From a virus (taxonomy: Duplodnaviria; Caudoviricetes), in the IMG/VR virus record IMGVR_UViG_3300020436_000012, positions 1-61,533 of that record: a stretch of DNA of 61,533 nucleotides, one strand, 5' to 3'. The notes under the pieces are model-generated. The model had not been told where the DNA came from. It ran no database searches and was given only the letters and a program-made list of their open reading frames with translations. Position 1 is the first letter of the stretch; the number at the start of each line of letters is the position of its first letter. The position numbers and the translations under genes were made by a program. Positions 20,901 to 51,869 of the stretch are shown here, one piece after another.

Positions 20901-22119
20901 TGACGGACAGTATTCAACTACGTTTTCAGACGGAGCAGGAGTTAAATCAATCACCGCGATAACACAAGCAGAGCCAGGTATTATAACTGTATCTGCTGAT
21001 CACTTTTTAGCAGCAACCACTCCCGCAACAAGAAGTATTATACATGACGTAATAGGTATGACACAATTAAATAGTAGAGAAGTTTATGTAACTAGAAGCA
21101 CCTCAAATACTACTCTTCAACTATTTAATTATACAGCTAAATCTGGTGTTACTATTTCAGCAGTCACAAAAGCAAACCCTGCAGTTGTAACTGCCTCTGG
21201 TCATGGTCTGAGCGATGGAGACAAAATAATTATTCAAGGGGTAGTGGGCATGACTGAACTAAACGGTCTTGTTTTCACTGTCGCTAATAAAACTACAAAT
21301 ACTTTTGAGCTTTCAGGAACAAATAGCAGTTCTTTCACTACTTACTCCTCTGGGGGTGTAGTTCACGAAGCTATTAATACTTCATCAGGACACTCAGCCT
21401 ACTCTAGTGGAGGGGTTGTAGACTTAGGAGACTATTCTAATGCTAATTCTTACGCTTTAATTGCTAGTGTGATTGCCGCAGATCAAATTAAATTAGGAAA
21501 AGTATACCACGCTAACGGGGCATCAACAGGAGCTAATGCATTTGCCAACTTGACAACTGTTGCGAGTTCATATAAACTAGTAGATCTAAATCAGTTTGCT
21601 GACTCTTCTTCTGCGGCGACCACATTCTTAGGAGATTCTAGTGCTTTGTCAAGGGTTACAGAAATTAGAACTTCTGAGTCTGACCCGTTTTTTGCTAATG
21701 GTAATGTAAATATTAGTACGTTTACTGGAACTTCTGATGATAGATTCACTACTTTTAGTACTGGATCAAGATTAGCTAGATTTTTCCAAATCAGAGAAAT
21801 TATAACAAACGCAAAACCAACTGAAACTAATTTTACGTTAGACACTTTTGAATATACGGTAGATAAACCAACTCAAGAGTTTAGAACTAGAGTTACTTTT
21901 GCAGGAACTAGCGATACTGGAGGAAATACTGCAGTAGACTATTCTTCTGCCGGATTTATTGAACCCCCGTTTATAACTATGACCCCTGTGGGAGCAATAG
22001 GAAAAATTGCAACAGTTATAGGCTCAACAAATACAGGAGCAAATATTAATGTCGTTAACTCATCTGATCAAGCACCTTCTACAGGTGTAGTGTTAGATTT
22101 TGTGGCACAAGGAATTTAA
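14914..22119 (+). CDS. Central tail fibre/tip attachment protein J-like with N-terminal Hint domain
   Basis: 2401 aa; LGEGPI, YPRTSLIG, GLLVKVPSNY, WDGTFVYSWTQNPIW, GVTRRSQASR gpJ motifs; FN3-like segments. Confidence 0.9.
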   Translation: MSVYKKYTNVSGGSVPIISGSKGGCFPAGSLVSTPRGEIPIEDIKLNDKVYCFDDNDKRWVSFVEKTWEHVPSETVGYILTITHEKGKLRVTDNHYLYDENNEYKEAKDWKVGEYLTSEDNDFSKILSIKSEDYLNETVYNLTVNTYHNYICQGIRLSNKGGGGKGGGGARAAATESPNTLFSTDILFLTVALGEGPIYRINPNGPQDIEINEGAIDDLINIDGDGEENNEVFKTLTTTGTLTQEPLAVFGAETITPQNLNNPVSLKNGNVEGIPKASVTLQNTSAKDWDKIRFNFVIQGLQKSDGNGNVTGSSVSITIQVFDRTGTTLIAELGEDSRTISGKTNTRFKFQRDILIPEASRSLDGYKFTIEKTSSDSDSNRTQDNVQFIGWDEIEFDDMAYPRTSLIGYAIKSFNEHEGRVPTFTSLIKGLLVKVPSNYNQPILSNGEIDWRELEIPETGTSTIGGESTQIGYTQKGYQLQTTVEGVAEKKISLISGSAGTGYASDATPSVTISGGGGSGGAATANIGTNKVSSFTLTNAGSGYTSAPTVTVAAPAAVTFNGASAVNDSSDTITITGHPFATGDQATYSAGGGTAISGTGVSTASGGVFIISVDANTVKLATSSVNSLSGTAIDITSGSGSSHTLTGMTATATATLTTEQFNANPIIYQGVWDGTFVYSWTQNPIWIVYDILTNRTYGLGIDEENIDKFMFYKVAQYCDACDFTTGAFIGVSGFADGTFRHKPRGLFTTVREILVGLDRGVQVKERRFMNDISIQEDVQVMDTINKLTSTFRGLLYYAGGKITLNIDIPEDTPVAVFNDANIRKDTLKFSGTKESDIITGVDVSYIEPANHFKREVVRIDDQEALRDRNQIENIQTVDLAGVTRRSQASRYGQYLIASSKYLRRQVEFQCGVDALNLVVGDIITVATKQGGIAYGFGGKVAADSQITGGGVANANILLEHFTSPAITASTFTGNTNPLAVRIIGMESDRIDYYLVDNVSFTANATGNADSGIDLIEIETIARYNYSTKAFVNGRDFLANNVPKKGDLWTFGETGGDPDNFYTAQNDRLFKITTISRGTEEDVTITGIEYISNVYVDSDSLIAYVPVRYDDTVSSLTPPPSPELNLSSRPRELGDGSVTNDLLVDVFTDQTGYPLFVETDLSIARPDFNFTPYLTSNANTGATTFTASNVSPLANGEVSILSGKNGFKTNTGEIKLLVDAVTNPDVTDTSNGNVQFSIKSLNLAFDINQMKHVLEVNDGGGAVANVLKGFDRVSFDLNQKLTTGTGLLGFVDHGTRLTQYSANIVAHSTTMDAGTIKIQNEHSGESTLLDQLPTPPFFVSINQLVDTRFMDNRSLYISGSSFTEIHSNVLTGNLTSSSSFIQPLVRGAPFKEAVRVFIDGIEKTTGDWNFTSSANDSITVPGLSTEATIRVEAEHYTVPAVEPGDNLQFHSGNVYSIVNASYSTDSADFNASLTANSMYRVTLGSKLRSNTRGTVAVNISPDPIGTTNNVVGRSFTFDYNKTLFPGTFSLSNNAIYSVLTPTTFDGFQIPNDRLVRDIDPGLYVLRAQNVNQAGRRSPIVTESILINEIPIQRVENLLITESLYIEQSVGAVTRVTVEFDHLQNQSVTDYELSYKLGGTAADLTSFNTVKLPATGVDTDGKMRFTINNVDRGLTSSVNNITVRVTALNKSIKGVTFEKSQPILGKQIPPQNIQNFSVSQLGENIHLFWAYVTNADGSLIDPDLRDIVIKRTQGIVQPADFASAFVNAPEFIVVSSGSTRKVAAIDTFGTFTYLAKTRDTSGNLSTDVVGVTFTSVKLAELFLLQSYSEDNPGGNVITGVPLTNRAEFNFPSLANSNTAGISIAAQPTSLVDNANGTAVGFSVISGSPTDILATGSQSIYQTQVRDIGALTSVSLTANIQGTATTSTDWNTLHRDIATGVTEVSSDNTILKDTGLGGSEGVGTVLGFGNTVAAIHTADIPNQTLVSGGATGNVFAIWNDGQYSTTFSDGAGVKSITAITQAEPGIITVSADHFLAATTPATRSIIHDVIGMTQLNSREVYVTRSTSNTTLQLFNYTAKSGVTISAVTKANPAVVTASGHGLSDGDKIIIQGVVGMTELNGLVFTVANKTTNTFELSGTNSSSFTTYSSGGVVHEAINTSSGHSAYSSGGVVDLGDYSNANSYALIASVIAADQIKLGKVYHANGASTGANAFANLTTVASSYKLVDLNQFADSSSAATTFLGDSSALSRVTEIRTSESDPFFANGNVNISTFTGTSDDRFTTFSTGSRLARFFQIREIITNAKPTETNFTLDTFEYTVDKPTQEFRTRVTFAGTSDTGGNTAVDYSSAGFIEPPFITMTPVGAIGKIATVIGSTNTGANINVVNSSDQAPSTGVVLDFVAQGI
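14986..15390 (+). other. Hint (intein-like/BIL) domain, 135 aa, no homing endonuclease
   Basis: Starts CFPAGSLV, has VTDNH block B, ends VYNLTV..HNY...RLSN; next residue is Lys. Confidence 0.88.
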
Positions 22120-29293: not shown

Positions 29294-29854
29294 TTCTATC
29301 ATATTGATTAACCATTTATTGTGAGGTTCACAAACATATACGTCTGCCTTACTGGTTTTTAAAACTTTGTTATATATTTCAGCCCTAGTTTCTATATCTA
29401 CACTTAAAAATACTAAGTCTTCGTGTTCTAGTTTAGAGTAATCAAAATCGTTCCCATCCATATGTAATATAGTAATTTTGTTTTCAACATTAGCGGCTTT
29501 AATTAAAAGATTTCCAATTTTTACACATCTTTCATCATAGTCTAGTCCAATAAGATTAATATAAGGGTATTGTTTGTGTATATCAAATAAACTATAAGGA
29601 TATAGACCCGATCCTACAAGTATTAAAGTTTTACATTCTTTAAATTTATATCTTTTCTTTTTTGTTTTTAGAGTTCTTGCTATCCAAGCATCTTTTTCGC
29701 ACAATTCAAACCCAAGGCTAAAGTCATTTTGTTCTTTAAAGTACTGTATCCAAGTCCACTCATTATTTTCAATACCTTTTTGCCAATTAATTTTTTCGTC
29801 TTTTAATTTTTTAATTGTATTCGAGGAGAATTTTAGCTGTTTTTCTTGTGCCAT
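29273..29854 (-). CDS. Class I SAM-dependent enzyme, nicotianamine synthase/CntL-like
   Basis: LILVGSGLYPYS motif I, IGLDYD motif II, HMDG; GSGxxPxS/T is typical of NAS-like proteins. Confidence 0.6.
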   Translation of the reverse strand: MAQEKQLKFSSNTIKKLKDEKINWQKGIENNEWTWIQYFKEQNDFSLGFELCEKDAWIARTLKTKKKRYKFKECKTLILVGSGLYPYSLFDIHKQYPYINLIGLDYDERCVKIGNLLIKAANVENKITILHMDGNDFDYSKLEHEDLVFLSVDIETRAEIYNKVLKTSKADVYVCEPHNKWLINMIEKSPQED

Positions 29855-30941
29855 CTAAATCAAACTCACAATTCTTTGGAAACTCATCATACTCATTTAG
29901 TATCTCTCTTATGTATTTAGAAATATTTTTTAAGTCTCTTACAGAACACACCTTAAACAGATCATAAGGTTTCATAACATAACTACGAACAAACTGTTCG
30001 ACCTTACCTCCATCTTCTCTTGGAATGATAATACTAGGAGTTCTACTAGAGAGTATCTCCATTGTACTGTTGTAACCCCCATAAGTAATAAACATAGTAG
30101 AAGACTCTATCAATCTAGATAAATTAGGAATGTAATCTACGGCTAATATATTACTTTTTTTGCGAATCCCTATTTTATCTTTCAGCTTTTTATTAGCCAT
30201 AAGGACTATAAAATCTAATTCTGGAAATTCTTTTGCAGCTCTTAGTATATTAGAAAATATTGATAAGCTTTCTTCTTTATTAAGACCTACACTCACATAA
30301 ACTTTATTATTTAACCTTTTGTGTTTTTCTTGTTTGGGATCGGTAACGTAGCCTGTATATTCTATTTTTGACTCAATTTCTTTGTACAATAACGCTGGGT
30401 CATAAAAAGACAGAGAGTCTGGTAATAACGGCAATATTTTTGGGTCGCCGTGAATCAATATTTTATCTAAGTATTGATTAACTACTAGATTTTGTGTTTT
30501 TGCTACCCAGTCTTTTAATCCTTGCTCATGTGGCTCATCCCAAGGAAAATCCCTAATACTACATATAATTTTTATTCCTTTTGCTTTCGCTGCTTCAAAA
30601 AAAGAAAATAATTCAAATGCCCACTGATGTCTACAAAAAGGAAACCCTTCTGATACTATAACACTAATATTATTATCGTTTAAAAAATTCTTCCATCTCG
30701 CTATTCTTTTTATCACTAAAGGTTCTTTCATTAAAGCTTTAAAAATATTTGGCTCTGAATGGTCGTAGTCTTCTTCTTTAACTAGTGTGTATTCTTTTTT
30801 AATTCCCTTAATTTCTAGAGGAGGCTTAAATAAATGATTAACAATACAACAATCAGTAAATTTAGCTGTTTCTTCTGCAATATGTTTTATTCTCATACTA
30901 TGGCCTAGCCCGCTATAATATTGCGTCAGAAACAAAATCAT
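29811..30941 (-). CDS. GT-B glycosyltransferase (GT28 C-terminal/COG4671-like)
   Basis: GLGH, EGFPF, CSIRD, LIHGDP, YTGYV, GGYNSTME, IIIPR...EQ. Confidence 0.85.
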   Translation of the reverse strand: MILFLTQYYSGLGHSMRIKHIAEETAKFTDCCIVNHLFKPPLEIKGIKKEYTLVKEEDYDHSEPNIFKALMKEPLVIKRIARWKNFLNDNNISVIVSEGFPFCRHQWAFELFSFFEAAKAKGIKIICSIRDFPWDEPHEQGLKDWVAKTQNLVVNQYLDKILIHGDPKILPLLPDSLSFYDPALLYKEIESKIEYTGYVTDPKQEKHKRLNNKVYVSVGLNKEESLSIFSNILRAAKEFPELDFIVLMANKKLKDKIGIRKKSNILAVDYIPNLSRLIESSTMFITYGGYNSTMEILSSRTPSIIIPREDGGKVEQFVRSYVMKPYDLFKVCSVRDLKNISKYIREILNEYDEFPKNCEFDLDGTRKTAKILLEYN

Positions 30942-31615
30942 TCGCTGACAAATTCCTTAATCATTGGAAAAATAGGTTCAATAGCCTGAGCACACGCACG
31001 AGCTACTTCCATATGTTCTTTTTGCGTACCGTGCCCACTACGTAGCTCAACGTAATGCACCCACGATCTAAGAGTACCATTCATATAAATTCTACTTTCT
31101 ATGTTACCCTCTGGAAGCACCGCTCTAGCTTGTTCTTTAGCAATCCCATTTTCGATAGCCCAACGATATACTTTTTGCGCACGCTCAATTACAGTAAGCT
31201 GTTTATGGTGCCAAGTTTCTTTTATTCCAGTATCGTCAGTTTCTACACTATTTTGTCTATTTTTAGTATCTTGAAGTCTTGCTTCTCTTGTTGTAAAGTC
31301 TAAATCTTTAGTGGGATCAGCATACCTTTGGCTAAACTCTTGAAAAGAGAATGAGCGATGTCTTAAAATTTGTCTTGCAATATCCCTAGTAGTTTCAATT
31401 TCTAAACAAACACTAGCCATCTCTAAAGGAGACCAATGTCCGTGTTTAATTAAATAACGAATTAGCTTTTCACTTGTTTCGTTATTCATTTGGTTATCGG
31501 GGTTAGATACTCTTGCACAATATGCTACAACATCTTGTACAGTGTCTAACCCAATAAATGCTTGTTCTGGTGTTTGTGAATATGATATTAATCTTACGTT
31601 CATAATCTTAGCCAA
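30938..31615 (-). CDS. thyX: FAD-dependent thymidylate synthase
   Basis: HGHWSPLE; RQILRHRSFSFQEFSQRY. Confidence 0.97.
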   Translation of the reverse strand: MAKIMNVRLISYSQTPEQAFIGLDTVQDVVAYCARVSNPDNQMNNETSEKLIRYLIKHGHWSPLEMASVCLEIETTRDIARQILRHRSFSFQEFSQRYADPTKDLDFTTREARLQDTKNRQNSVETDDTGIKETWHHKQLTVIERAQKVYRWAIENGIAKEQARAVLPEGNIESRIYMNGTLRSWVHYVELRSGHGTQKEHMEVARACAQAIEPIFPMIKEFVSE

Positions 31616-31824
31616 GTCCTTAATCTCTTATTTAAATCTCTTAGTTCTTTAGTCATATATATTATAGCAAATAACATTGCATTACCAAGTAATACAAAAA
31701 ATAGTTGTGATAAAGTAAAACTATCAATAAAAAACAAATAAATTTCTATCAATATAAATTCTATATTTATTTTAAGTAACCAAAATATAGGATCTTTTAG
31801 TTTATCTAGTACCACTACTACCAA
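31600..31824 (-). CDS. Small hydrophobic hypothetical protein
   Basis: Fills the dut-thyX gap; hydrophobic; start uncertain. Confidence 0.35.
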   Translation of the reverse strand: MVVVVLDKLKDPIFWLLKINIEFILIEIYLFFIDSFTLSQLFFVLLGNAMLFAIIYMTKELRDLNKRLRTWLRL

Positions 31825-32398
31825 ATCCCCCTCTATTAATAATTAATTCTTCTGTATCATTTTCACTAAGAGACACAGTTTCTCTTTTTGGTTTTTTTAC
31901 TAAACCTCGTTTTTTTACTTTTTCTTCTTGTACCCACGGGTGCGCATTAGATAGTATCACTGTCTGTTCTATAGCATCTACATATTCAAAAGATACTTGG
32001 GGCACTGGTCTAAAACATGCTTGTGCTATTCTGTCTCCTGGAGATATAGTAAAAGTCCTGTTTCCCGAATTATAAAGTATAATTTTTACTTCATTTCTGT
32101 AAGCAAAATCAACTGTTCCGGGACTGTTAACTATCATTATACCATTTTTATGAGCTAATCCGCTTCTAGGTCTAATTTGTATTTCCCAAAAAGGATTATC
32201 TATTTGAAAGTATAATCCTGTTCCTACAGTATCTCTACAATTAGGTTCTAATACTATTTCTTCTAGTTCACAAGCTCTTAAATCATACCCAGCATCAAAA
32301 GGATACTGTTGTTGTAGATTCCAAGTAATACCTAATTTTTCTTCTAATTCTTTAGCGAGTTCACTTTTTTCTATTTTTACACTAAGATGTTGAGACAC
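31802..32398 (-). CDS. dut: Trimeric dUTPase
   Basis: DAGYDL, RPRSGLA, GTVDFAYRNE, GDRIAQ, RGGFGSSG; extra linker before motif V. Confidence 0.95.
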   Translation of the reverse strand: MSQHLSVKIEKSELAKELEEKLGITWNLQQQYPFDAGYDLRACELEEIVLEPNCRDTVGTGLYFQIDNPFWEIQIRPRSGLAHKNGIMIVNSPGTVDFAYRNEVKIILYNSGNRTFTISPGDRIAQACFRPVPQVSFEYVDAIEQTVILSNAHPWVQEEKVKKRGLVKKPKRETVSLSENDTEELIINRGGFGSSGTR

Positions 32399-33236
32399 CT
32401 TGCAACTCCTCCCAAGCTTCTTGACCGTGTTTACCTGCTGTTATTGCTAGTTCGTTATGTTTTTTTAAGGTGATAAGTTTTTCGTTTCGTAACAAAATTT
32501 CTTTACTCTCGTTTAAGTTTTTTAAGAATTTTGATTTTGCAGGTTTGATAGGTAGAGAATCTAGTAAGTTATCAAGAGTTTTATATTCTCTTGCCAGTGT
32601 TTGAGCACGTTTAGGGCCAATACCTTCTACTCCCATAATATTATCACTCTTATCCCCTTCAATTATTCTTGATAACATGTATTCTTCTGGTGTGACTTGA
32701 TAATCCTCAATGAGAGTGTCTATAGTTATTTCTTTTCTAGAAAACATGTTAAATATAGACACTTCGTTATTAATTAATTGAAACAAATCTCTATCACTTG
32801 AAATTACCCATGTGTGTTCATAAGAAGGAGAAATATTATTACACAAATACGCAATAATATCATCAGCTTCTATACCTCTAAATTTGTAATTTTCAAAAGG
32901 GATTAGGTCAGGTATGACGTTTAAACAAGAGAAAAATTTATCAAATTTTTCTACGGTTTCTGGGTCTGTTGGTTTTTTTCTATTTGCTTTGTAGGTAGTA
33001 AGAAGGTCGTTTCTGTAATAACTTCTTCCAAAATCAAAACAAACTATCGTTCTTTGAGCTTGATAGCTCTTAGATAAGCTTTCAACGGTTCTTATAAAAT
33101 CCTCTGTAAAGTTATCTACGTTTTTTCTTTGTAGCCATCTAAATGCTAAATTGTTAGCATCTACTAGTAATAAATTAGTGGCTGCAGCAGAGGCGTTTTC
33201 TACCTCTACTAAATCATTCCACGCTTTAGTATTCAT
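32382..33236 (-). CDS. D15: 5'-3' exonuclease/flap endonuclease (T5 D15-like)
   Basis: LLVDANNLAFR, YKANR, GIEADD, SSDRD, GDKSDNIMGVEGIGPKRA. Confidence 0.95.
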   Translation of the reverse strand: MNTKAWNDLVEVENASAAATNLLLVDANNLAFRWLQRKNVDNFTEDFIRTVESLSKSYQAQRTIVCFDFGRSYYRNDLLTTYKANRKKPTDPETVEKFDKFFSCLNVIPDLIPFENYKFRGIEADDIIAYLCNNISPSYEHTWVISSDRDLFQLINNEVSIFNMFSRKEITIDTLIEDYQVTPEEYMLSRIIEGDKSDNIMGVEGIGPKRAQTLAREYKTLDNLLDSLPIKPAKSKFLKNLNESKEILLRNEKLITLKKHNELAITAGKHGQEAWEELQGVSTS

Positions 33237-33260
33237 AATATTTCCTTTCTGTATTTATAT

Positions 33261-33289
33261 ATTATAGCAATATATAAACATAGAGTCAA
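33261..33289 (-). promoter_or_regulatory. Sigma70-like promoter for D15
   Basis: TTGACT-17 nt-TATAAT with TG extension. Confidence 0.75.
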
Positions 33290-33301
33290 ATAATATTATT
33301 C

Positions 33302-34309
33302 TTATGTTGCTTTTCTACTCAAATCTAAAGTCACGCAGTGGAAACCGCCACTGATAATTCTGTCATGTCTTAGCTCTAGAGGAATAGCTTCAATTTTATG
33401 TTTCTTAAGTTTTTGTATTAACTGTTTTTGTTTTCTATCTACTATTGCTAAATTTGGATTCACACTCAAAAGATTTAATCCAATCCATGCACTTGCTCCC
33501 CAAGGAAGCTCTGTTTTATTGCTAGCACTATAACATTCATCTATCCATATCTTGTCCCATGATTTAAATAACTTCGGTTCATTTTCTTGAGTTACTCGAC
33601 TAGCATTATATAAAACTAACCCTTCTCTCAAAGGGATAATTGTACTATCTAGGTGTGCATATGAATATAAATTATGTAAAATATGTACTTTTTTGTCCAT
33701 AAGAATATCTTGTAACCATTGACCCCCTAACTCGTTTCCTGTATTACTTACTTGATAAAGAATATCATTGTTTATTCTCATACAGTTAGCAGCTTCAAAC
33801 ATGGGTTCTTTATTTAAAAGAGTTGGTTTTCTATCTATATCATCAGTTTGATAATTTTCTTCTTTATAACTTGGGGTTGGAGCTTTAACCCATTTATAAC
33901 CGTCTTTCCATTTTTTAGTAAAAATATCTTTATATGCTTGAGTTTCATTTTTTCTATCAATTAACGGAGATGGGGTTTCTATTATAGTATTCCCAACAAT
34001 TAAAGTTAAGTCTCTAGGACAATGATAATGGTATTCTGGTTTTTTAGTCGGGTCTGGTCTATGAACTTTTACTCCTAAACTTTTTAAAGTATTACTTAGT
34101 GTATCTAAGTCTTCTTCTTGTTCTTCTACTAACCAAGCCGGAAAAAGACCTGAAGATGTTAATATTTCTTTTTCAGTATACGTTGGATACATACAACTCA
34201 TTAAACTTTTATTAGGTTTAGGTATTTTACTTCCTATTGCTGATCCTACTATAACTTCTTCTAATTGATCCCATTCATTATTGCAAGTCATTGTATATCT
34301 ACTCTGCAA
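33302..34309 (-). CDS. Amidinotransferase (glycine/inosamine-phosphate amidinotransferase family)
   Basis: NEWDQLEEVIVG, CPRD, FEAAN, AHLDST, SGGFHCVT catalytic Cys. Confidence 0.92.
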   Translation of the reverse strand: MQSRYTMTCNNEWDQLEEVIVGSAIGSKIPKPNKSLMSCMYPTYTEKEILTSSGLFPAWLVEEQEEDLDTLSNTLKSLGVKVHRPDPTKKPEYHYHCPRDLTLIVGNTIIETPSPLIDRKNETQAYKDIFTKKWKDGYKWVKAPTPSYKEENYQTDDIDRKPTLLNKEPMFEAANCMRINNDILYQVSNTGNELGGQWLQDILMDKKVHILHNLYSYAHLDSTIIPLREGLVLYNASRVTQENEPKLFKSWDKIWIDECYSASNKTELPWGASAWIGLNLLSVNPNLAIVDRKQKQLIQKLKKHKIEAIPLELRHDRIISGGFHCVTLDLSRKAT

Positions 34310-34313
34310 ATTG

Positions 34314-35174
34314 TTAACATATATATTTGTCCCTAATTAATTCTGAGATACATACCCTATTAGTTTCGTTTCCTCTGTTATATTCTGCCCACTCATCTCC
34401 GCCTATACCAAATAGTACACAATCTGTAGGTTCTAGGTTATTTTCTCTGCAAACTTTATAATGTGCTTTACCATACTTATCCCAGTTATAATCTGGAGAA
34501 AATTTATTCATATACTCTATTCCTATTCCCAAACTCATACTATTTACCATGTTTACAGAATTTAAGATATCAATTGAATCATCTGTGTCTTCTTTTTCAA
34601 ACCTAATACCAAGACGCAAATTTTCAGCACCATAAAATGCTTTTGATAAAGAAAAAGTTATCATATCAATACATTTATGAGATAGATCAACATTAATATT
34701 TTTTGTGCAAGGGAGATAAGCGAAATCTAAAAGAACAGGAAGGTTCATAGCGTCACAGGTAGTAAGGATACCAGGTAAAGTTGGGTGTTGTTTTCCGTAA
34801 TCACTGAAAGGTACAGACATTATTATGGCATCATTCTCTGTAATTTCAGTATCGTTTAAATAGCCCCAGTTTATATTTTTTTTAAAGCACGCGCTATGAT
34901 ACATAAACTCACCCCTAAAGAATAAAAATCTTTTATTTCTATGTCTCCAGTGAAAGGTATCAAAAGAGTGTGCAGTACCGTTACAGGTTTTTACGTTTTT
35001 AAATAAGTGTAAATTTTTTAAGTTATTATTTTTACTGGCAACAATCCATTTTTTGAATGTTTCGATAAATTTTTCTTTTATATTTTTATCATAAAGGTTA
35101 TCTACTATATCAAAAGTGTATAACCATTCTATTATTTCTAAATCTGGTATCGCTTTTGCCCCTCTTAAATCCAT
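34314..35174 (-). CDS. Compact fold-type I PLP-dependent enzyme
   Basis: VLLDFAY and FSLSKAF...LRLG (PLP lysine). Confidence 0.8.
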   Translation of the reverse strand: MDLRGAKAIPDLEIIEWLYTFDIVDNLYDKNIKEKFIETFKKWIVASKNNNLKNLHLFKNVKTCNGTAHSFDTFHWRHRNKRFLFFRGEFMYHSACFKKNINWGYLNDTEITENDAIIMSVPFSDYGKQHPTLPGILTTCDAMNLPVLLDFAYLPCTKNINVDLSHKCIDMITFSLSKAFYGAENLRLGIRFEKEDTDDSIDILNSVNMVNSMSLGIGIEYMNKFSPDYNWDKYGKAHYKVCRENNLEPTDCVLFGIGGDEWAEYNRGNETNRVCISELIRDKYIC

Positions 35175-35692
35175 TAGTAAAATCCTGAAACTTGTAGAGT
35201 AACCTTATTACGCAGTCCTGCGTTTGAAGATAAGTGTAATACTTGATTATTAAATACATACCCTGTATTCTTTTTCCAATGAGTAATAACTTCGTCGTCA
35301 AATTGTAAAAATTGCCCATTTTCCCAATCAGTTAAAAACATGTTAGCCCTAACTTTTTCTTCTTTTCTGTTTGGAAATTTTTTAGTAATTTGATAAAACA
35401 TATCTCTGTGCCACGGAATTATGTTACCCGGTTTTTGTAAAATTGCTGATACAGTTGCCACTTCCATATTTAATTGTTCTTCGAGTTCTTTAAAATCCAC
35501 ATCATCTTTTGTAAAAAACTTTTGATAAATAGTGGTGTTTTCTAAACACAAAGTATCAGGAAAACCTTCATCGTGTAAATCCGCTTGTTCTGATTTTTGG
35601 TGCTGTATACACGAACAACGATAGTTTTCCCAATCTACTGATAAATAAGGAGCAGTGTCAATATTAATTTTTTTAAAGTCAAATATTTTCAT
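35174..35692 (-). CDS. 2OG-Fe(II)/cupin oxygenase (Asp/Asn beta-hydroxylase-like)
   Basis: PGNIIPWHRD (HxD) and VLHLSSNAG...TLQVSG. Confidence 0.75.
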   Translation of the reverse strand: MKIFDFKKINIDTAPYLSVDWENYRCSCIQHQKSEQADLHDEGFPDTLCLENTTIYQKFFTKDDVDFKELEEQLNMEVATVSAILQKPGNIIPWHRDMFYQITKKFPNRKEEKVRANMFLTDWENGQFLQFDDEVITHWKKNTGYVFNNQVLHLSSNAGLRNKVTLQVSGFY

Positions 35693-36857
35693 TTGTTAAT
35701 CCTAATAAATAATTTTCCACGCTTTTTATTCTGGTTTCAAAGTGTTTATGGTTATGCTCTAATATGTGTTTAATCTTACTATTAAACTCTTGTAGCTCAT
35801 CTAAACTTTTATTACACAGTTTTTCTACTTCTATCATTACTTTTATAAATCTTTTGTCAAGATCGTCTTCAGCATCATAACTTTCGTCAATAAAGGGATG
35901 AAACGTTTTATAGCCCATTTTTTGTAGACCTTTTAGTGTATTTAATTGTCCCATCACTATAAAAGGTTTTTTCCACCACATGGGTCGTAAAGATTTTTCC
36001 GTAATATATAATTTTCCTACAAAAAAAGACTTATAGTACGCTTCTAAAACCAAAGAAAAATAAGAATTGTTTTCTATTGATTCATTAAATATTTTTGTTT
36101 CTTTTACTCTATTGTCTAATAACTTACGAAACACAGAGGGTATAGGCTTGTCTGTAACATAACTAATTTTTTCAACAGATTGGTGGGAATAGTCTGCATA
36201 TTTTAATAAATTTCTTTTTTCTAAAGCGTTTATTGTAGCTTGTCTAAAATCATAATTTGAATTTGCACTATTATTAAGAATACAAAATTTTTTCTCTTTT
36301 GGTAAATTATTAATTTTGTAACCAGAAAGTATAGAAAGGCAGGAGGTTTCGTGATTAGTTCCTACTACTATTTTTACTTCTTTATCCTCCCAAAAAGGGT
36401 TGTTTACTAAAAATATTAATTTTTCTTTTGGAACTCCATTACTTATGAGTATGTTTTTAATATTAGAAAAAGATCCCTCAGTTATAGGTTCCCAGCCTAA
36501 ACAAATAAGAACATGACTTATTTTTTCAGAATCTTCATAATGAAAAAAAGGTTTTCTCGGGCCAAACCCTGTACTAGCAAAGTAACAAAAGTAATCAGCT
36601 GCCTCATTACTATAAAATTGTATTGGGTATATCGCTCTGTCATTAGGAGTAAGACTTTCTTTTTTTACAAATTCTACTCGGTTTTCTTTCCACATTTTCA
36701 TTAATGCGGAAGGGATTGTAAAAAATCCATGTTCTCTCTCATTAAAATGACTAATTTTATACCAGTTATTAAAATAAATAGAATCGTTTAAGTTAGGTAA
36801 AGGACCTTTATCATCAAAATTATCAAAGACTACTTTTAATTTCTTTAATCCAGTCAC
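35679..36857 (-). CDS. Hypothetical protein, putative glycosyltransferase-like
   Basis: FSLVLE...ITEKS...KPFIVMG...GYKTF...DESYD C-terminal motif; ITEK recalls the GT10 family. Confidence 0.5.
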   Translation of the reverse strand: MTGLKKLKVVFDNFDDKGPLPNLNDSIYFNNWYKISHFNEREHGFFTIPSALMKMWKENRVEFVKKESLTPNDRAIYPIQFYSNEAADYFCYFASTGFGPRKPFFHYEDSEKISHVLICLGWEPITEGSFSNIKNILISNGVPKEKLIFLVNNPFWEDKEVKIVVGTNHETSCLSILSGYKINNLPKEKKFCILNNSANSNYDFRQATINALEKRNLLKYADYSHQSVEKISYVTDKPIPSVFRKLLDNRVKETKIFNESIENNSYFSLVLEAYYKSFFVGKLYITEKSLRPMWWKKPFIVMGQLNTLKGLQKMGYKTFHPFIDESYDAEDDLDKRFIKVMIEVEKLCNKSLDELQEFNSKIKHILEHNHKHFETRIKSVENYLLGLTNENI

Positions 36858-37263
36858 TTAATATTCCCATTTTAAATTTACAATCAAAAACATTACACTC
36901 TATGTAATGTTCTATTTCTACTTCGTCGTCCCAACATACATAATCTTTAGACCTGTTCCATCTATAGATAACTAAAGGTTTCTTTTTCATAACTTCTGCT
37001 TCTCTTTGGGCTTGTCGCCAAAAGTTTAACAAATCAGAAGATGTCGCTGTAAGTAATCCATTCCAATTAACTTCTTTGTAGTGTTTACATTCAATACAAT
37101 AAGGCCACGCAGCAGTATCGTGAGGAGTCCAAAGGTCTCCCTTAAGGTACTCTAACGATCCGCTGAGTGGCATACGTTTAAATTCTATACCTAATTCTTT
37201 AGTTAAGTAATCTCTTATTTTAGCTTCATACGCAGAACCTTTAATTTTACTTTTGCTTGACAA
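36823..37263 (-). CDS. D14: Holliday junction resolvase-like nuclease (T5 D14-like)
   Basis: SKIKGSAYE, RMPLSG..KGD, IECK PD-(D/E)xK motif. Confidence 0.88.
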   Translation of the reverse strand: MSSKSKIKGSAYEAKIRDYLTKELGIEFKRMPLSGSLEYLKGDLWTPHDTAAWPYCIECKHYKEVNWNGLLTATSSDLLNFWRQAQREAEVMKKKPLVIYRWNRSKDYVCWDDEVEIEHYIECNVFDCKFKMGILSDWIKEIKSSL

Positions 37264-37278
37264 ATAATTTCTTCTTTC

Positions 37279-37989
37279 TTATATAACTCCCTGCTCTTTG
37301 AGCTGGTCTTTAGCTAATATGTAAGCTTTTACAATATCACTTCTTACAATATCATCACTAGAGAATTCTATTTTAGCAAATTGTGGCAAATGGTTCAAGA
37401 TTTTTATGAATTTTTTTAGCCCTTGCTTTTCGGTATCTCTTACAAAGTCTGTTTGATAAAAATCACCACAAAATAAAATTTTACAGTCTCTACCTATTCT
37501 AGTAATAACGGAGTCTAATTCATGGAAGTTAAGGTTTTGGCACTCATCAATAATAATTATTGAGTTGTCAAAAGTTACCCCTCTAATAAAAGAGGTGGGT
37601 AAAAATTCGACGGCTCCTTGAGTTTTTAATTTGTCATAAGCGTCTTTACAATCAAAAAGTTCTGCTGAAATTGACATATAAGGATCTTCATAGACTTCTA
37701 TTTTTTCTGTTTTGTCGCCTGGTAAATATCCTATATCTCTAGTAGGCACTACACTTCTTATAATATAAAGTTTGTTATAGTGCCTGTTAGACTTTTCTAA
37801 TATTTCTTCTAAAGCAAGATACATGGAAATAAATGTTTTCCCAGTTCCCGCACTTCCATGTAGTATTAAGCTTTTATTTTCTTTTTTATATGCTTCAAAA
37901 GCAAATTTCTGACTTGTTGTCAGCGGAGTTACTGTTATTAAATCGTCTAATTTAAGCCAGCGTGTTCCATTACTACCATTTTTACTCAC
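37279..37989 (-). CDS. phoH: PhoH family ATPase
   Basis: GSAGTGKT, GYLPGD, FIRGVTF, DECQN, TRIG, GDFYQTD, DIVRS. Confidence 0.95.
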   Translation of the reverse strand: MSKNGSNGTRWLKLDDLITVTPLTTSQKFAFEAYKKENKSLILHGSAGTGKTFISMYLALEEILEKSNRHYNKLYIIRSVVPTRDIGYLPGDKTEKIEVYEDPYMSISAELFDCKDAYDKLKTQGAVEFLPTSFIRGVTFDNSIIIIDECQNLNFHELDSVITRIGRDCKILFCGDFYQTDFVRDTEKQGLKKFIKILNHLPQFAKIEFSSDDIVRSDIVKAYILAKDQLKEQGVI

Positions 37990-38006
37990 TTTTATGTGAT
38001 TCTCCT

Positions 38007-39266
38007 TTAAGCCGCTTTTGCGTAGGCATCATCCCAAGAACCTGTAAGTCCTGCTACTTCATATTCAGTTACTCTGTTTTCAAAGAAATTAGTATGATCA
38101 GCACCGTTTAGAATCCATTCTAACCACGGTAAGGGATTCTCTTTAACTTTAAAATTAGGTTTTAATCCTAGTTGTAGTAGACGCCTGTCTGTAATATATC
38201 TAATATATTTTTTCACCTCACTAGAATCTAATCCTTCTATTTCTCCCATAGCATAGGCTAAATCAATAAACTTATCTTCTAGGTCTACTGCAACCCTTGA
38301 CATTTCATAAATTTCACTCTTAAATTTATCTCCAACTATTCTGGGGTGTTCAATACAATATTGTCTAAATACTTTAGACACGCCTTCTACGTGTATAGAT
38401 TCGTCTCGTATTGACCACTCTACAACCTTGCCCATACCTTTCATCTTTCCGGTTCTTTGAAAGTTAAGTAACATGACAAAAGAGGCAAATAAAGCAACAC
38501 CCTCATTAAAAACAGATTTTGCTAATGCTAGTCCTAGTCCTCTTTGTGACCCTATGTGAGAATCCATCATAAAATCTATTTTATCTGCCATTTCAGTATA
38601 TTCAAGAAAAGCATGATATTCAGAATCAGGTAGCCCAAGAGTTTCATTTAATAGAGCATAAGCTCTTTGATGTATTCCCTCTCTTGAGGCAAAAGATCCA
38701 AACATATTTCTAACTTCATTATTCTTAAATTTAGGAATAAACTGATCATAATAGTTTTGTCCTACTGCAACATCTGATTGTGTGAATAGTCTAAGGATAT
38801 TAGTTATATATTCTTTTTCTATTTCAGTGACTTTACCGTTTTTCCAATCAGTAACATCTTCTGATAAATCTAATTCGTCCTCAATCCAATGAACTTTTTC
38901 ATGTCTAGTGGTAATCTCTACAGCCCACGGGTATTGAAAAGGTTTATATGTTTTTGAGAACTGCATTAAACCTCCAGCTCTTTTTAGTAAAATGTTGTCT
39001 GATATTTTCATTAACTGGTCATACCCACCAATTCTCTCGTCATCCACAAATATTTGTGGCACTGAGTTTATTCTTTTTTGTTTAGCATTATTCTTACCAA
39101 GAGTTTCTTCTAAGTCATTAAGACTTTGATAGAACGCCAATCTTTCTTCTTCTTTGTCCATAAGTTGTTCCTCATAGTCGAAACCATGCTCATTTAACCA
39201 ATTTTTCGCCATTAAACAAAACGGACAGTCTGATTTACTTACAATTCTAATATTCATTTTTTTCAT
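38007..39266 (-). CDS. nrdB: Class Ia ribonucleotide reductase beta subunit with N-terminal glutaredoxin
   Basis: CPFC...SVPQIF...IGGY Grx domain; TQSD, REGIHQRAY, NEG, RDESIH, NFFE.RVTEY. Confidence 0.95.
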   Translation of the reverse strand: MKKMNIRIVSKSDCPFCLMAKNWLNEHGFDYEEQLMDKEEERLAFYQSLNDLEETLGKNNAKQKRINSVPQIFVDDERIGGYDQLMKISDNILLKRAGGLMQFSKTYKPFQYPWAVEITTRHEKVHWIEDELDLSEDVTDWKNGKVTEIEKEYITNILRLFTQSDVAVGQNYYDQFIPKFKNNEVRNMFGSFASREGIHQRAYALLNETLGLPDSEYHAFLEYTEMADKIDFMMDSHIGSQRGLGLALAKSVFNEGVALFASFVMLLNFQRTGKMKGMGKVVEWSIRDESIHVEGVSKVFRQYCIEHPRIVGDKFKSEIYEMSRVAVDLEDKFIDLAYAMGEIEGLDSSEVKKYIRYITDRRLLQLGLKPNFKVKENPLPWLEWILNGADHTNFFENRVTEYEVAGLTGSWDDAYAKAA

Positions 39267-46253: not shown

Positions 46254-47105
46254 CTAAAATTTCATTCCGTTTTGTTTCATCTCATTTGATACGTAATGGT
46301 TAGTAGGAGAACACATGTTACATAAAGGTTCTTCATCTGTCAAACACCATTCTATTATTTCTTCTTCAGTCATTTCTAAAGTAGCAGGTTGGATACTAGT
46401 ATAAGGTTTCCATTCTTCACTATCTTGTTGTCCCCAATGAGTTAGTCCATCTTTTAAATGTGCATGAACACTACATTTATATAATTTATTTTTATATAAA
46501 CCTTTACAATATTTCGCTTCACAAATATTATAACTATCTTTTATCTGATTAGCATTATAGGGATGAATACCTTTTTCATCTCTTTTATGATATAATTTCC
46601 AATAATTAGTTCTTGTAGTATCAATTAAGTGTATTAAACTGCCTTTACTATTTATTTTCCTATAATCATCCCCTAAATATTCTATACAATCTTCTAATAT
46701 TTTTTTTAATCGTTTCTGGTAGTTTGAATCTGAAAAGTGTACAGACACAAATATTTCGCTACGAGTTTCTTTAATCGCGTCCAATACATTAGTCTTTTTA
46801 TTCAAAATTAAACCATTTGTTCCTAAAACAACTCTCCATTTAGGAAAATTTTCTCTAACTAAGTATAACAATTCTGGAAGTTTTTTGTATAAAACAGGCT
46901 CTCCTCCTAAAATTTTTATTTTATCAAAAGGTATTTTACCTTGTTCCCATATGGGCATAATTTTTTTAGCCCAAGATTTAACACTATCTTGTAGCTCGTC
47001 CCAATCATGCTCTCCTTTTAGATAATCTGAATAACTATCACAAGCATAACACTTAAGATTACAAGTTTGATTTATTAATAACTCTAATTGATACCTATCT
47101 AACAT
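46254..47105 (-). CDS. Radical SAM protein
   Basis: CNLKCYAC, LGGEP, TNG, LYKC, CNMC. Confidence 0.9.
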   Translation of the reverse strand: MLDRYQLELLINQTCNLKCYACDSYSDYLKGEHDWDELQDSVKSWAKKIMPIWEQGKIPFDKIKILGGEPVLYKKLPELLYLVRENFPKWRVVLGTNGLILNKKTNVLDAIKETRSEIFVSVHFSDSNYQKRLKKILEDCIEYLGDDYRKINSKGSLIHLIDTTRTNYWKLYHKRDEKGIHPYNANQIKDSYNICEAKYCKGLYKNKLYKCSVHAHLKDGLTHWGQQDSEEWKPYTSIQPATLEMTEEEIIEWCLTDEEPLCNMCSPTNHYVSNEMKQNGMKF

Positions 47106-47113
47106 TACAAAAA

Positions 47114-47827
47114 TTATTTAAAGCTTTTCTTTTGCCACTTTTTTCTTCTATACCAATTTTTTCTGTCATTTCTCATATCTTCTCTTGTTTCGTGTGCTCT
47201 AGTAAGAACTCCTCCTTTTAAATTAGTAATTGTGTGTTTCCATTCTTGTCTTTTAAAAGGTATAACTTGAATCATAGGCGTGCCCTCTTTTAGATCAATA
47301 TGATGACCAACATCTAGCCCTGGAAATATACAAGGAAAGTTAACGGTATTAAAATATTCATCTGTGTCGACTATGCCAGATAAAGGTATGTAAGGCATGT
47401 CATGGCGGTTAAATAAGGGAGTAAATATACAAGAATATCCGGGAGAGGTTTCTATAATCCAAGGGTTATAAAATTTTATAACTCTAAACCCAGAAAAAGG
47501 TGCGCCGGGATATTGAGACACGTCATGATTCTCTACAATCGTATATTTAGATAATCTGTCTCTTTCTTCTTCTGATTTCCATAGAATTTGATTTTCAGTA
47601 TCAGAAATAATTGCTAATGTTAAATCAAAAGGTAAGGGTATAATATACCCTGCTGTCATAGCATCTAAAAAAGGTATACATCTTTTAACTGTTTGATAAT
47701 CTTCTCGTTCTGCTTTTGGAGATAAATGTTTCATCCAATCAGGCACACCTTTAGAAGCTGGAAAAGGACTTGGAATCTCCAAGCCCTCCCACTCTCTAAC
47801 TAAATGAAATTTTATGTTTACTGTCAT
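47114..47827 (-). CDS. Hypothetical protein (possibly dUTPase-like beta fold/DUF6065-related)
   Basis: KRCIPFLDAMTAGY, PWIIETSPGYS, SGIVDTD, EGTPMIQVIPFKR. Confidence 0.55.
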   Translation of the reverse strand: MTVNIKFHLVREWEGLEIPSPFPASKGVPDWMKHLSPKAEREDYQTVKRCIPFLDAMTAGYIIPLPFDLTLAIISDTENQILWKSEEERDRLSKYTIVENHDVSQYPGAPFSGFRVIKFYNPWIIETSPGYSCIFTPLFNRHDMPYIPLSGIVDTDEYFNTVNFPCIFPGLDVGHHIDLKEGTPMIQVIPFKRQEWKHTITNLKGGVLTRAHETREDMRNDRKNWYRRKKWQKKSFK

Positions 47828-48627
47828 TATTTTGGGACTACATTAAAGTCAATGATTTGTTTTACATTTCCTTCAAACGTATAGGTACCAATATGGTTTA
47901 ACTCAGTTTTAGGGTCTAACCATATTTCCCCGCCTAATTTTTGCCACAACCTACAAAACCTGTAGTCTTCTGACAAATATCTTCTATCTTCTTCATCAAT
48001 ATGAGTATCAAAAAAAGCGTAACAATATTTTGCGACTTTTTCATCAATGTTACTATCATTTTTATAATGAAGTTCTGGATACTCAAGCATCATTCTTTCA
48101 AAGACTTCTCTTTTTATACAAAAGAACCCTGTACTAGCGTCTAGTACCTCTACTAACCCGTTTTCGTACCTAATTCTTTTTTGTACTGGGTCTATAAATT
48201 TAAAGTTTAATGCATATTGAATAGGTAAAGCTTTTTTTGGATAGGCACCAGCAACTATATCTTTATCTGCAGATACAGCTCTCATAATCGCTTCTGGTTG
48301 CCACTCAATGTCTGCATCTAAAAAGAATAGATGAGTAGCTTCACTATCTAGAAACATAGCTACTAGAATATTTCTAGCTCTAGTTACAAGACTTTCATTT
48401 CTTAGAGTAGTTAGCCTAAAAGAACAAGGTATTTGTGACAGTGCTTGAGTAGTTTTAAACATGCTCAAAAAGAACTGATCTGTTATCATACCTCCATAAC
48501 AAGGAGTAGCGAAAAATATATTTTGCTTTTTCAAAAACTCATGATCAATAGGCGCTTCCTCGTCAAAATTTTGAGGAGTTTCTACGATTGACTCCTCTTC
48601 TACTACCATATCAGACAATTTTACCAT
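47827..48627 (-). CDS. GT-A fold glycosyltransferase-like protein
   Basis: ATPCYGG, ESLVTRARN, FLDADI (DxD), TGFFCIKREVF, SEDYRFC. Confidence 0.85.
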   Translation of the reverse strand: MVKLSDMVVEEESIVETPQNFDEEAPIDHEFLKKQNIFFATPCYGGMITDQFFLSMFKTTQALSQIPCSFRLTTLRNESLVTRARNILVAMFLDSEATHLFFLDADIEWQPEAIMRAVSADKDIVAGAYPKKALPIQYALNFKFIDPVQKRIRYENGLVEVLDASTGFFCIKREVFERMMLEYPELHYKNDSNIDEKVAKYCYAFFDTHIDEEDRRYLSEDYRFCRLWQKLGGEIWLDPKTELNHIGTYTFEGNVKQIIDFNVVPK

Positions 48628-51091: not shown

Positions 51092-51869
51092 GTAATAATG
51101 CCATTCTTACGAACAACCCGTTTTTCATTTGTTCAAAATATTTTGCCCTAGGATCGTCATCAAACCACCTAGGTATTTCTTCGTTTCTAGGAAAGGGGTG
51201 CATTACTATAGCGTTATCAGGGATATGCTTAATGTGTTCTTTTCTCATAGAGTAACCACCTTCGCTACCTCTTTCTTTTTGTACTCTAGTTAAGTAGTAT
51301 ATGTCACTAGCAGGCCAAATACTTTTATCAAAAGTATCTGCATAGTGTTTAGTACAACTGTCCAAAGCTTTATCTAAACTGTGTACTGTTCTACCGTTTT
51401 CGATGTCTCCGACAAAAGTAATAGTTAAATCAGTGATTCTTTCAAATTTTTCCCAAATTGTATACAAATCTAGGAGTGTTTGAGTTGGGTGTTCTCCATT
51501 TCCGTCTCCTGCATTTATAATAGGAACAGAACTTATCTCTGCGGCTTTTTTTGCATCTCCAGCATTTTTACTTCTTAAAGCAATAATATCACAATAGTTA
51601 CCCATAGTAATAATAGTGTCTTCTAAATTCTCCCCTTTAGAAACACTACTATAATTTACGTCATTAATAGATATCACTTGTCCCCCAATTCTCCACATAG
51701 CTGAGGCAAAAGAAGAAGATGTCCTAGTAGAAGGTTCATAAAATAAATTACATAATATTAAATTTTTATTAGGACAATATATATCTCCAAGTTTAAACGA
51801 TGTCACTAAGTTAAAAAAATCTTTATAATTACCTAGGTCCCAATCATCAAGACTAACTAAGTGTTTCAC
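51078..51869 (-). CDS. pyrB: Aspartate carbamoyltransferase catalytic subunit (short form)
   Basis: FYEPSTRT, KGENLEDT, HPTQTLLD, GRTVHS, TRVQKER, MHPFPR. Confidence 0.95.
   Translation of the reverse strand: MKHLVSLDDWDLGNYKDFFNLVTSFKLGDIYCPNKNLILCNLFYEPSTRTSSSFASAMWRIGGQVISINDVNYSSVSKGENLEDTIITMGNYCDIIALRSKNAGDAKKAAEISSVPIINAGDGNGEHPTQTLLDLYTIWEKFERITDLTITFVGDIENGRTVHSLDKALDSCTKHYADTFDKSIWPASDIYYLTRVQKERGSEGGYSMRKEHIKHIPDNAIVMHPFPRNEEIPRWFDDDPRAKYFEQMKNGLFVRMALLHEYV

Follow-up and report, generated by a model that had tools for sequence, protein, structure and literature searches.

A StrB1-type amidinotransferase cassette inserted between D14 and D15 of a T5-like phage, and its predicted role in guanidino sugar formation

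We analysed an IMG/VR viral contig of 61,533 bases from an uncultured marine phage (IMGVR_UViG_3300020436_000012; Duplodnaviria, Caudoviricetes), referred to as the window and estimated to hold about 55 % of the phage genome, and concentrated on four adjacent genes that interrupt its T5-like replication region. They encode a StrB1-type amidinotransferase (ADT_335), a compact aminotransferase-like enzyme dependent on pyridoxal phosphate (PLP_286), a small putative 2-oxoglutarate (2OG)/Fe(II) oxygenase (OXY_172) and a glycosyltransferase of the GT-B fold (X_392); their families are called ADT, PLP, OXY and X below, and coordinates are given in Table 1. The association of the four genes goes far beyond chance in three censuses anchored on different genes. 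We propose that the cassette is an optional, mobile tailoring module that would turn a hydroxyl-bearing carbon of a sugar, or of a sugar-like polyol, into a guanidino group and couple this step to glycosyl transfer, and we assign this reading a probability of about 0.5.

All four open reading frames (ORFs) that the first-pass annotation of the window had described as tightly coupled were recovered on the minus strand. X_392 starts inside the 3′ end of the D14-like gene (35-nt overlap), OXY_172 and X_392 overlap by 14 nt, and PLP_286 and OXY_172 share 1 nt. The overlaps noted at that stage therefore stand, but the 4-nt gap it gave between PLP_286 and ADT_335 exists only if translation of the latter begins at TTG 34309. 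The ATG at 34291, which leaves a spacing of 22 nt, is the likelier start, because the homologues and the StrB1 alignment both begin at Met7. The plus strand of the region carries only short nested ORFs, and the GC content is even over the cassette and its flanks (0.27-0.33). The surrounding replication region encodes an SbcC-like ATPase, ribonucleotide reductase, PhoH, the D14-like nuclease, D15, dUTPase, ThyX, a family A polymerase, a primase and a helicase, and D15 itself is 37-39 % identical to flap endonucleases of T5-like phages. In Escherichia phage T5_ev219 the flap endonuclease begins at the end of D14; since the two genes abut there, the insertion proposed for the window, at the place where T5 has D14 beside D15, is real.

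ADT_335 is, from its sequence, a full-length homologue of StrB1-type amidinotransferases, which belong to the pentein superfamily. StrB1 itself amidinates scyllo-inosamine 4-phosphate on the way to streptomycin. In a phmmer search of the PDB residues 7-333 of ADT_335 aligned with residues 4-340 of StrB1 (PDB 1bwd) at E 2e-82, while SxtG (2.6e-41), HsvA (1e-38) and AGAT (1e-35) gave weaker matches. Residues C325 (in G-G-F-H-C), H219 and D221 (in H-L-D-S-T) and D100 (in P-R-D), which we take to be catalytic, are present in 9/9 phage ADTs, and identical residues are aligned in StrB1. No Pfam match was obtained at E 0.01, and the sole family match was PHROG 25854, whose function is unlabelled. Published annotations of the phage homologues read "glycine amidinotransferase".

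Regarding PLP_286, the AlphaFold2 model had a predicted local distance difference test (pLDDT) score of 91.0 and a predicted template modelling (pTM) score of 0.90. Its best Foldseek matches were HisC and CobD (1e-11), and VIA-align superposed 264-280 of the 286 residues at Z 19-21.5, with 50 class I/II enzymes among the matches listed. The model thus places the protein in the class I/II aminotransferase fold and not in the DegT/StsC type, and hhalign found no relation to a DegT half-enzyme. Residues invariant in 40/40 family sequences comprise D150 (L-D-x-A-Y), S175, S177 and K178 (S-x-S-K), R187, R267 and R273, and the family profile aligned its D-x-A-Y and S-x-S-K motifs with the aminotransferase 3if2 (E 0.0027). 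PLP_286 itself has no Pfam match at E 0.01, but a homologue in another T5-like phage (L134:3477-4397) scores 26.6 against PF00155, above the cutoff of 19.7. A single-sequence search of the PDB gave only chance-level matches, and PHROGs and NCBIfam were uninformative. The family extends over 171 protein clusters.

In an alignment of 37 sequences of the OXY_172 family H95 occurs in 36, and R96, D97, H153, Q167 and S169 are invariant. Position 163 is K or R in the alignment rows, and position 165 is T or S, with A in one row. In 2OG oxygenases a basic residue and a Ser/Thr about 10 residues past the distal His bind the carboxylate of 2-oxoglutarate. Comparison with a protein of the Synechococcus phage (cyanophage) S-SCSM2R annotated as a 2OG-Fe(II) oxygenase gave an hhalign probability of 97.7 % with the iron-triad positions aligned. 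Sub-threshold matches to PF05118 were seen in 14 of the 37 family members, and among 46 remote relatives 13 matched PF05118 (one above the cutoff), five PhyH (one above the cutoff) and one 2OG-FeII_Oxy_3. Searches of PHROGs and NCBIfam were uninformative, single-sequence matches in the PDB were at chance level and a profile search of the PDB came back empty. From the His-x-Asp...His pattern and the remote PF05118 and PhyH links we regard OXY_172 as a putative small 2OG/Fe(II) oxygenase. The wider superfamily counts 698 representative proteins, including distant oxygenases outside the module.

X_392 returned zero Pfam, PHROG and NCBIfam matches, chance-level single-sequence matches in the PDB and an empty PDB profile search, and its class was assigned from the AlphaFold2 model (pLDDT 86.5, pTM 0.88). 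The top Foldseek matches are GT-B proteins (a GT10 fucosyltransferase, TreT, GtfC and T4 beta-glucosyltransferase; probability 0.9-0.98), and the 50 VIA-align matches listed are GT-B enzymes throughout, at Z 8.5-11.5 over residues ~3-392. On this model X_392 is a glycosyltransferase of the GT-B fold. Family-invariant residues are E272, E287, K288, H320, E325, D328 and R336, and the invariant E...T-E-K presumably resembles a motif of GT10. The nearest named ESM Atlas clusters carry PF00852, a family that X_392 itself does not match, at scores of merely 0.78-0.79, and we treat the GT10 affinity as a lead only. The three enzyme classes named at first reading are borne out by the StrB1 homology, the class I/II fold and the remote 2OG-oxygenase links; the catalytic motifs then called intact hold as family-wide invariant residues in the ADT, PLP and OXY alignments; and the 392-residue protein described as GT-like has, after the Foldseek check, a GT-B fold.

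To see how regularly the genes travel together we counted them around three anchors. For the ADT anchor 20 viral loci were examined: upstream DNA amounted to at least 1 kb in 16 and to at most 42 nt in four. PLP and OXY accompany ADT in 16/16 of the former, OXY being truncated by the contig end in L006. A second census was anchored on the flap endonuclease and was therefore blind to the cassette: 129 relatives were found and 80 kept, of which 38 were dropped for having less than 5 kb upstream, so that 42 were counted. All four genes occur in 13 of these loci, OXY, PLP and ADT in four, PLP, ADT and X in two, OXY, PLP and X in one, X alone in one and a divergent ADT alone in three; 18 have none. 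Of the two loci with PLP, ADT and X, one is truncated by the edge of the locus; in the other a PhyH-like dioxygenase stands where OXY would be. The D14-D15 spacing in the 18 cassette-free loci is mostly 59-102 nt, reaching 796 nt in L132, and from their number we conclude that the cassette is optional in the T5-like group. The PLP-anchored census kept 80 viral loci of 93 relatives and found OXY in 71, ADT in 66 and X in 59, usually in the order OXY-PLP-ADT-(radical SAM)-X. T5-like markers are present in a single locus of the 80, from which we conclude that the module moves between phage types, and some of the contigs exceed 200 kb. Conservation of the neighbourhood across viral metagenomes had been named as the check on a shared pathway, and in all three censuses the genes proved co-conserved.

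The loci lacking ADT are informative about the order of steps. Within 5 kb ADT is absent from 14 of the 80 PLP-anchored loci, and 12 of these 14 keep OXY, PLP and X, often with two copies of X; the T5-like phage L134 has the same constitution. Because OXY, PLP and X persist in such loci, the amine that OXY and PLP would make appears to be a viable end point and the guanidino group an add-on, which fits ADT acting last in the predicted pathway.

The D14/D15 and PhoH/D14 junctions of related phages hold varied cargo, including a SpeD-like protein with a divergent pentein, MazG, glutaredoxin and tandem X paralogues. In L119 (4037-5414), L124 (2603-3980) and L120 a SpeD-like S-adenosylmethionine (SAM) decarboxylase stands just before a divergent ADT-like protein and is followed by MazG and glutaredoxin. 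These ADT-like proteins match the ADT profile at E ~1e-17, and the combination is possibly a polyamine-type pairing distinct from the cassette. L114 (655-4216) carries three X-like GT-B paralogues in tandem and none of OXY, PLP and ADT.

An ADT-family scan of prokaryotes, in which each species was represented by a single genome, returned 326 relatives; 79 loci (39-47 % identity) were retained. By profiles, only two of them, L026 and L028, have OXY, PLP and X beside the ADT. Both are chromosomal contigs of Bdellovibrionota, in which OXY and ADT are followed by PLP on the opposite strand and then by X. Genes for UvrC, SpoIID, a ComM-like ATPase and a XerC/D-type recombinase border the module, and the GC content is uniform at ~54 %. 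The XerC/D-type tyrosine recombinase of L026 (2716-3678) lies a few kb from the module, which may sit on a small integrated island. Since the module is conserved across both this rearrangement and the divide between viruses and cells, we consider it one functional unit. A pattern scan of cellular genomes for the PLP family had come out blank (29 pattern matches, none confirmed); as the ADT scan later found the family in L026 and L028, this blank is put down to the patterns used and not to absence.

A quick tree of 99 ADTs, built without three short rows and two duplicates, was assessed by Shimodaira-Hasegawa-like approximate likelihood ratio test (SH-aLRT) only. A split with a value of 96 unites 18 T5-like ADTs with L026, L028 and a further cellular locus, L027, and the ADT of cellular locus L060 pairs with the cyanophage ADT. 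The neighbours of the L027 ADT are Gmd (above the NCBIfam cutoff), an Fcl-like enzyme, a DegT aminotransferase and NodU-like carbamoyltransferases; those of the L060 ADT are an X-like GT-B protein, a nucleotide-sugar dehydrogenase, an epimerase/dehydratase, a DegT fragment and two GT2 proteins. L027 and L060 thus have NAD-dependent sugar oxidoreductases without OXY, whereas the phage and L026/L028 modules have OXY without those enzymes, a pattern that fits OXY supplying the keto group in their place. The amination slot is likewise filled in different ways, by the class I/II enzyme here and by a half-size DegT enzyme in S-SCSM2R and L060, with no hhalign relation between the two. As unrelated enzymes fill this slot in different lineages, amination appears to be a required step.

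In most other phage versions ADT and X are separated by a gene for a radical SAM enzyme, a family present in 45-46 of the 80 PLP-anchored loci. The window encodes a full-length homologue 9.4 kb from the cassette, which matches the protein at L200:6911-7774 in BLASTP at 1e-26 over 272 residues, and for this reason the module is probably split in this phage. In view of the physical separation we rank the protein as a likely fifth component. Of the guanidinylation pathway put forward initially, the enzyme set and its co-conservation hold up; the cassette is probably not the whole system. The radical SAM gene (283 aa) belongs to a second small minus-strand cluster (46254-48627) together with a DUF6065 protein of 237 aa and a weakly Anp1-like (GT-A type) protein of 266 aa; neither of the latter two has relatives among the 80 PLP-anchored loci. 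A proposed relationship of L200:6911-7774 to L240:7724-8548 was dropped after direct comparison showed them to be unrelated.

Related cassettes contain further genes. A PhyH-like dioxygenase is found in nine loci, DUF6071 and radical SAM enzymes of SPASM and B12 type also occur, and a weakly P4H-like protein of 249 aa is present in 54 of the 80 PLP-anchored loci; its representative at L200:3765-4514 gives weak P4H-like matches only (E 0.03-0.06). An accessory family of 220-230 aa, with the invariant motifs C-G-x-S-x-S-Y-G-T, S-G-N and N-H-L, was seen in six loci, among them the nearest relative of the window, L003 (7370-8032, between PLP and ADT). We abandoned its assignment to the SGNH hydrolases, which had been based on a resemblance of these motifs; it has no PDB and no Pfam match and is unrelated to L240:5849-6481. 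In L010 (3291-3950) a 219-aa fusion of a cytidylyltransferase-like part with a mannose-6-phosphate-isomerase-type cupin directly follows ADT.

From the enzyme classes and catalytic residues seen in the alignments and models, and from the co-inheritance of the genes, we infer a substrate, an order of steps and a product as follows. OXY_172, with Fe(II), 2-oxoglutarate and O2, would oxidise the C-H beside a hydroxyl and so generate a keto group. PLP_286 would convert the keto group to an amine by transamination, with Lys178 forming the Schiff base and an amino acid supplying the amino group. ADT_335 would take the amidino group of L-arginine onto Cys325 and pass it to the amine, releasing ornithine and leaving a cationic guanidino group. 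X_392 would move a sugar from a nucleotide donor to an acceptor that may belong to the host envelope, the virion or DNA or may be a small molecule, and the radical SAM enzyme would probably add a further tailoring step. The substrate is probably nucleotide- or phosphate-activated. A sugar would best fit the presence of a glycosyltransferase and the nucleotide-amino-sugar contexts of the nearest cellular ADTs.

Several observations weigh against this proposal. The arginine-modifying enzymes RohP, Plu4, MppP, GntC and MppQ are tied with generic aminotransferases and C-S lyases at the top of the fold list of PLP_286, and the fold therefore does not point to a substrate. Amino acids, not sugars, are the usual substrates of class I/II aminotransferases, and oxygenases of the AspH-, PhyH- and P4H-like kinds often act on amino acids or proteins; OXY_172 itself passes no Pfam cutoff. 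Other cellular StrB1-like ADTs adjoin ATP-grasp ligases, SbnA/B-like pairs, decarboxylases and NRPS-like (non-ribosomal peptide synthetase-like) genes, and such amino-acid contexts mean that membership in the family does not fix the acceptor. The active site differs from that of the relatives at Glu172 (F-E-A-A-N), present in 9/9 phage ADTs where StrB1 and SxtG have Asp; the carboxylate is kept on a longer side chain. The complementarity of OXY and the NAD-dependent enzymes rests on few lineages, and the ADT tree is a quick search only, in which CP220 has a very long branch. The substrate, activity and product of the module are thus predictions from sequence, fold and context.

The same observations lead to the first alternative, which we consider unlikely: the module would make a modified guanidino amino acid or a small metabolite derived from arginine or lysine. 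Here the oxygenase would hydroxylate an arginine- or homoarginine-like compound, the PLP enzyme would transaminate, cyclise or eliminate, ADT would make or remake the guanidino group, and the GT-B enzyme would glycosylate the product or serve elsewhere. Such a route agrees with the carboxylate-type arginine R273 kept in the class I/II fold of PLP_286 and with the arginine-modifying enzymes tied atop its fold list, with the AspH- and PhyH-type families to which the OXY relatives point, and with the amino-acid or peptide contexts of several cellular StrB1-like ADTs. 2OG oxygenases acting on homoarginine are also the subject of one paper (PMC11018352). It does not explain, however, why 59 of the 80 PLP-anchored loci also carry the GT-B gene, nor why nucleotide-sugar clusters surround the cellular ADTs that the best-supported split places with the phages, as well as the ADT that is sister to the cyanophage one. 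Moreover, a DegT-type sugar aminotransferase fills the amination slot in other lineages, and a ligase, an NRPS and an exporter are absent from the phage cassettes examined.

An improbable second alternative has a protein or peptide as the target, such as one of the virion or the host surface, which would be altered by hydroxylation, GT-B glycosylation and conversion of a lysine- or ornithine-type side chain to a guanidino group by ADT. AspH-, P4H- and PhyH-like oxygenases would suit such a role, as would the SPASM- and twitch-type radical SAM enzymes of related cassettes, and the fold matches of X_392 include the protein O-glycosyltransferases GtfC, Gtf3, SdgB, OGT and POGLUT; the matches are nevertheless tied across all GT-B classes and do not single out protein glycosyltransferases. 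The virion of S-SCSM2R is reported to contain another amidinotransferase (ORF266) and a prolyl hydroxylase-like protein (PMC12801897). Against a protein target, the aminotransferase has no obvious role on protein side chains, and no precursor peptide gene was noticed. StrB1-type enzymes, in addition, are known for small-molecule acceptors.

That four unrelated auxiliary genes merely share an insertion hot spot, with ADT alone making guanidinoacetate or something similar, would suit the varied cargo at the D14/D15 and PhoH/D14 junctions and the "glycine amidinotransferase" label of the phage homologues, but it is very improbable given the co-occurrence in three anchorings, in phages without T5 markers and in rearranged Bdellovibrionota copies, and given that ADT_335 matches StrB1 (2e-82) much better than it matches glycine amidinotransferase (1e-35).

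If the guanidino sugar proposal is right, several lineages of aquatic phages are equipped to convert a sugar hydroxyl to a guanidino group by a compact route in which an oxygenase replaces the usual NAD-dependent enzymes. To our knowledge, guanidino sugars seldom occur in nature, and streptomycin-type antibiotics are their main known source. A cationic sugar made by a phage could alter host surfaces, virions or DNA and thereby affect adsorption, evasion of defence or competition, and the small, self-contained enzymes could be useful for the enzymatic synthesis of guanidino sugars. A more speculative extension, which we hold to be improbable, is that the cationic guanidino sugar is attached in the early phase to the phage's own DNA or virion and helps it to evade host nucleases or receptors. 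A viral macromolecule would then, for the first time, be seen to carry a charged modification that depends on an amidinotransferase, and the occurrence of the module in predatory Bdellovibrionota would suggest a common means of surviving inside another cell.

Table 1. Positions of the cassette genes, the borders of the insertion and associated features in the window
Feature	Position	Strand	Description
X_392	35679-36857	-	GT-B fold glycosyltransferase (from model), cassette gene 1
OXY_172	35174-35692	-	small putative 2-oxoglutarate/Fe(II) oxygenase
PLP_286	34314-35174	-	compact fold-type-I, class I/II aminotransferase-like PLP enzyme
ADT_335	33302-34309	-	StrB1-type L-arginine-dependent amidinotransferase (by homology); likelier start ATG 34291
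D14-like PDDEXK nuclease	36823-37263	-	Pfam PDDEXK_15, 8e-28; upstream border of the insertion
D15 flap endonuclease	32382-33236	-	Pfam 5_3_exonuc_N and 5_3_exonuc; downstream border of the insertion
Promoter-like site	33261-33289	-	TTGACT-17-TATAAT with TG; between cassette end and D15
Radical SAM protein, 283 aa	46254-47105	-	Pfam Radical_SAM, 2e-9; likely fifth component

The gap between ADT_335 and D15 measures 65 nt and holds the best promoter-like site of the interval 31500-38500, which scores 11/12 with an extended -10 and is a consensus match only; promoter-like sites overall are not enriched (40 against 32.6 ± 5.3 in shuffles). Short contigs from RNA libraries (three libraries, two studies) cover stretches of each of the four genes with 92-100 % identity, which may reflect DNA carry-over and from contigs cannot demonstrate transcripts. 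A nucleotide search with the whole cassette against 50,697 phage records gave zero matches, and so did tblastn with X_392 against the phage records; these records thus offer no cultured phage with the T5-like version.

Elsewhere in the window we noticed a second GT-B glycosyltransferase, a GT28/MGT-like protein of 376 aa encoded after ThyX (29811-30941, minus strand). It is independent of the cassette, because it is present in T5-like relatives including 11 of the 18 cassette-free loci; tblastn against cultured phage records gave zero matches. A short PyrB-like aspartate carbamoyltransferase (263 aa) and a 119-aa cytidylyl/adenylyltransferase-like protein (51078-52228, minus strand) are possibly a pyrimidine or nucleotide auxiliary pair. 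Recycling of ornithine by the carbamoyltransferase (51078-51869) was considered and rejected, the enzyme being PyrB-like instead (TIGR00670, 241.8 against a cutoff of 236.95). The window further encodes a 2401-aa tail protein (14914-22119, plus strand) with an N-terminal Hint/intein-like segment (residues ~21-161) and FNIII-A_GpJ, Phage-tail_3 and E1_FCCH-like domains, and a UvdE-type UV damage endonuclease (58606-59679, minus strand; Pfam 7e-38).

Compared with known systems, the cassette shares with the T4 DNA glucosyltransferases the GT-B fold of X_392 (beta-GT Z 11.2, alpha-GT Z 10.7) and a position among genes of DNA metabolism. These matches are tied, however, with dozens of other GT-B enzymes, and the window holds ThyX; no base hydroxymethylase was found among the window ORFs scanned, which represent ~55 % of the genome and include several ORFs without a family. 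As Bdellovibrionota hold the same module, its target should not be specific to phage DNA. In aminoglycoside tailoring, amino sugars and aminocyclitols are modified by the same classes of enzymes (the 2OG dioxygenase KanJ, the radical SAM enzymes BtrN and DesII, an aminotransferase and GT-B proteins), a likeness that we draw by enzyme class alone; the phage differs in having no genes for the synthesis of a cyclitol or of 2-deoxystreptamine.

Among phages, S-SCSM2R (ORF308-309) encodes an ADT 39 % identical to ADT_335 and Campylobacter phages CP220 and CPt10 encode ADTs that are 26-30 % identical, in each case with glycosyltransferase and radical SAM genes nearby. S-SCSM2R resembles the window in having an OXY homologue directly upstream of ADT and differs in the half-size DegT enzyme that stands where the window has PLP_286. 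The 173-aa protein gp085 upstream of the CP220 ADT was rejected as an OXY homologue (hhalign probability 0.1 %). In the literature, the S-SCSM2R homologue is named among "antibiotic synthesis genes" without experiments and another amidinotransferase (ORF266) with a prolyl hydroxylase-like protein is listed in the virion proteome (PMC12801897), a radical SAM cluster with a "putative glycine amidinotransferase" is reported for CP220 and CPt10 (PMC2853527), and a marine auxiliary-gene survey has the term in its reference list only (PMC11360552). A search of full-text literature, supplements aside, found no paper characterising such a phage module. The chemistry proposed here, a streptidine-like guanidinylation together with glycosyl transfer, is known, and its phage setting has not been described in print.

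Comparable clusters in cells are the nucleotide-amino-sugar loci L027 and L060 of uncultured bacteria. Their StrB1-like ADTs are 43-44 % identical to the phage ADT and have an adjoining aminotransferase; L060 also has an X-like GT-B protein, and L027 falls on the phage side of the SH-aLRT 96 split. They differ in using Gmd with an Fcl-like enzyme or a nucleotide-sugar dehydrogenase, each with DegT, in having no relative of OXY or PLP_286 and in the added carbamoyltransferases or GT2 proteins, and they are themselves uncharacterised.

A close characterised counterpart is the streptidine branch of streptomycin biosynthesis in Streptomyces griseus, in which a carbinol is oxidised, transaminated and then amidinated from arginine. 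The alignment of ADT_335 with StrB1 is full-length, with the Cys, His and Asp positions retained, and the logic of oxidation, transamination and amidination is the same. The phage, in contrast, would assign oxidation to a 2OG/Fe(II) oxygenase and amination to an enzyme of class I/II fold, and one active-site Asp is replaced by Glu. A DegT/StsC-type aminotransferase, an inositol dehydrogenase and a kinase were found neither in the cassette of the window nor in the related cassettes scanned. The StrB-type chemistry suggested by the first-pass annotation is therefore upheld in its logic, with which the ADT-less loci and the nucleotide-amino-sugar contexts agree, but not in the type of its aminotransferase: the cassette works like the streptidine pathway without being a member of it.

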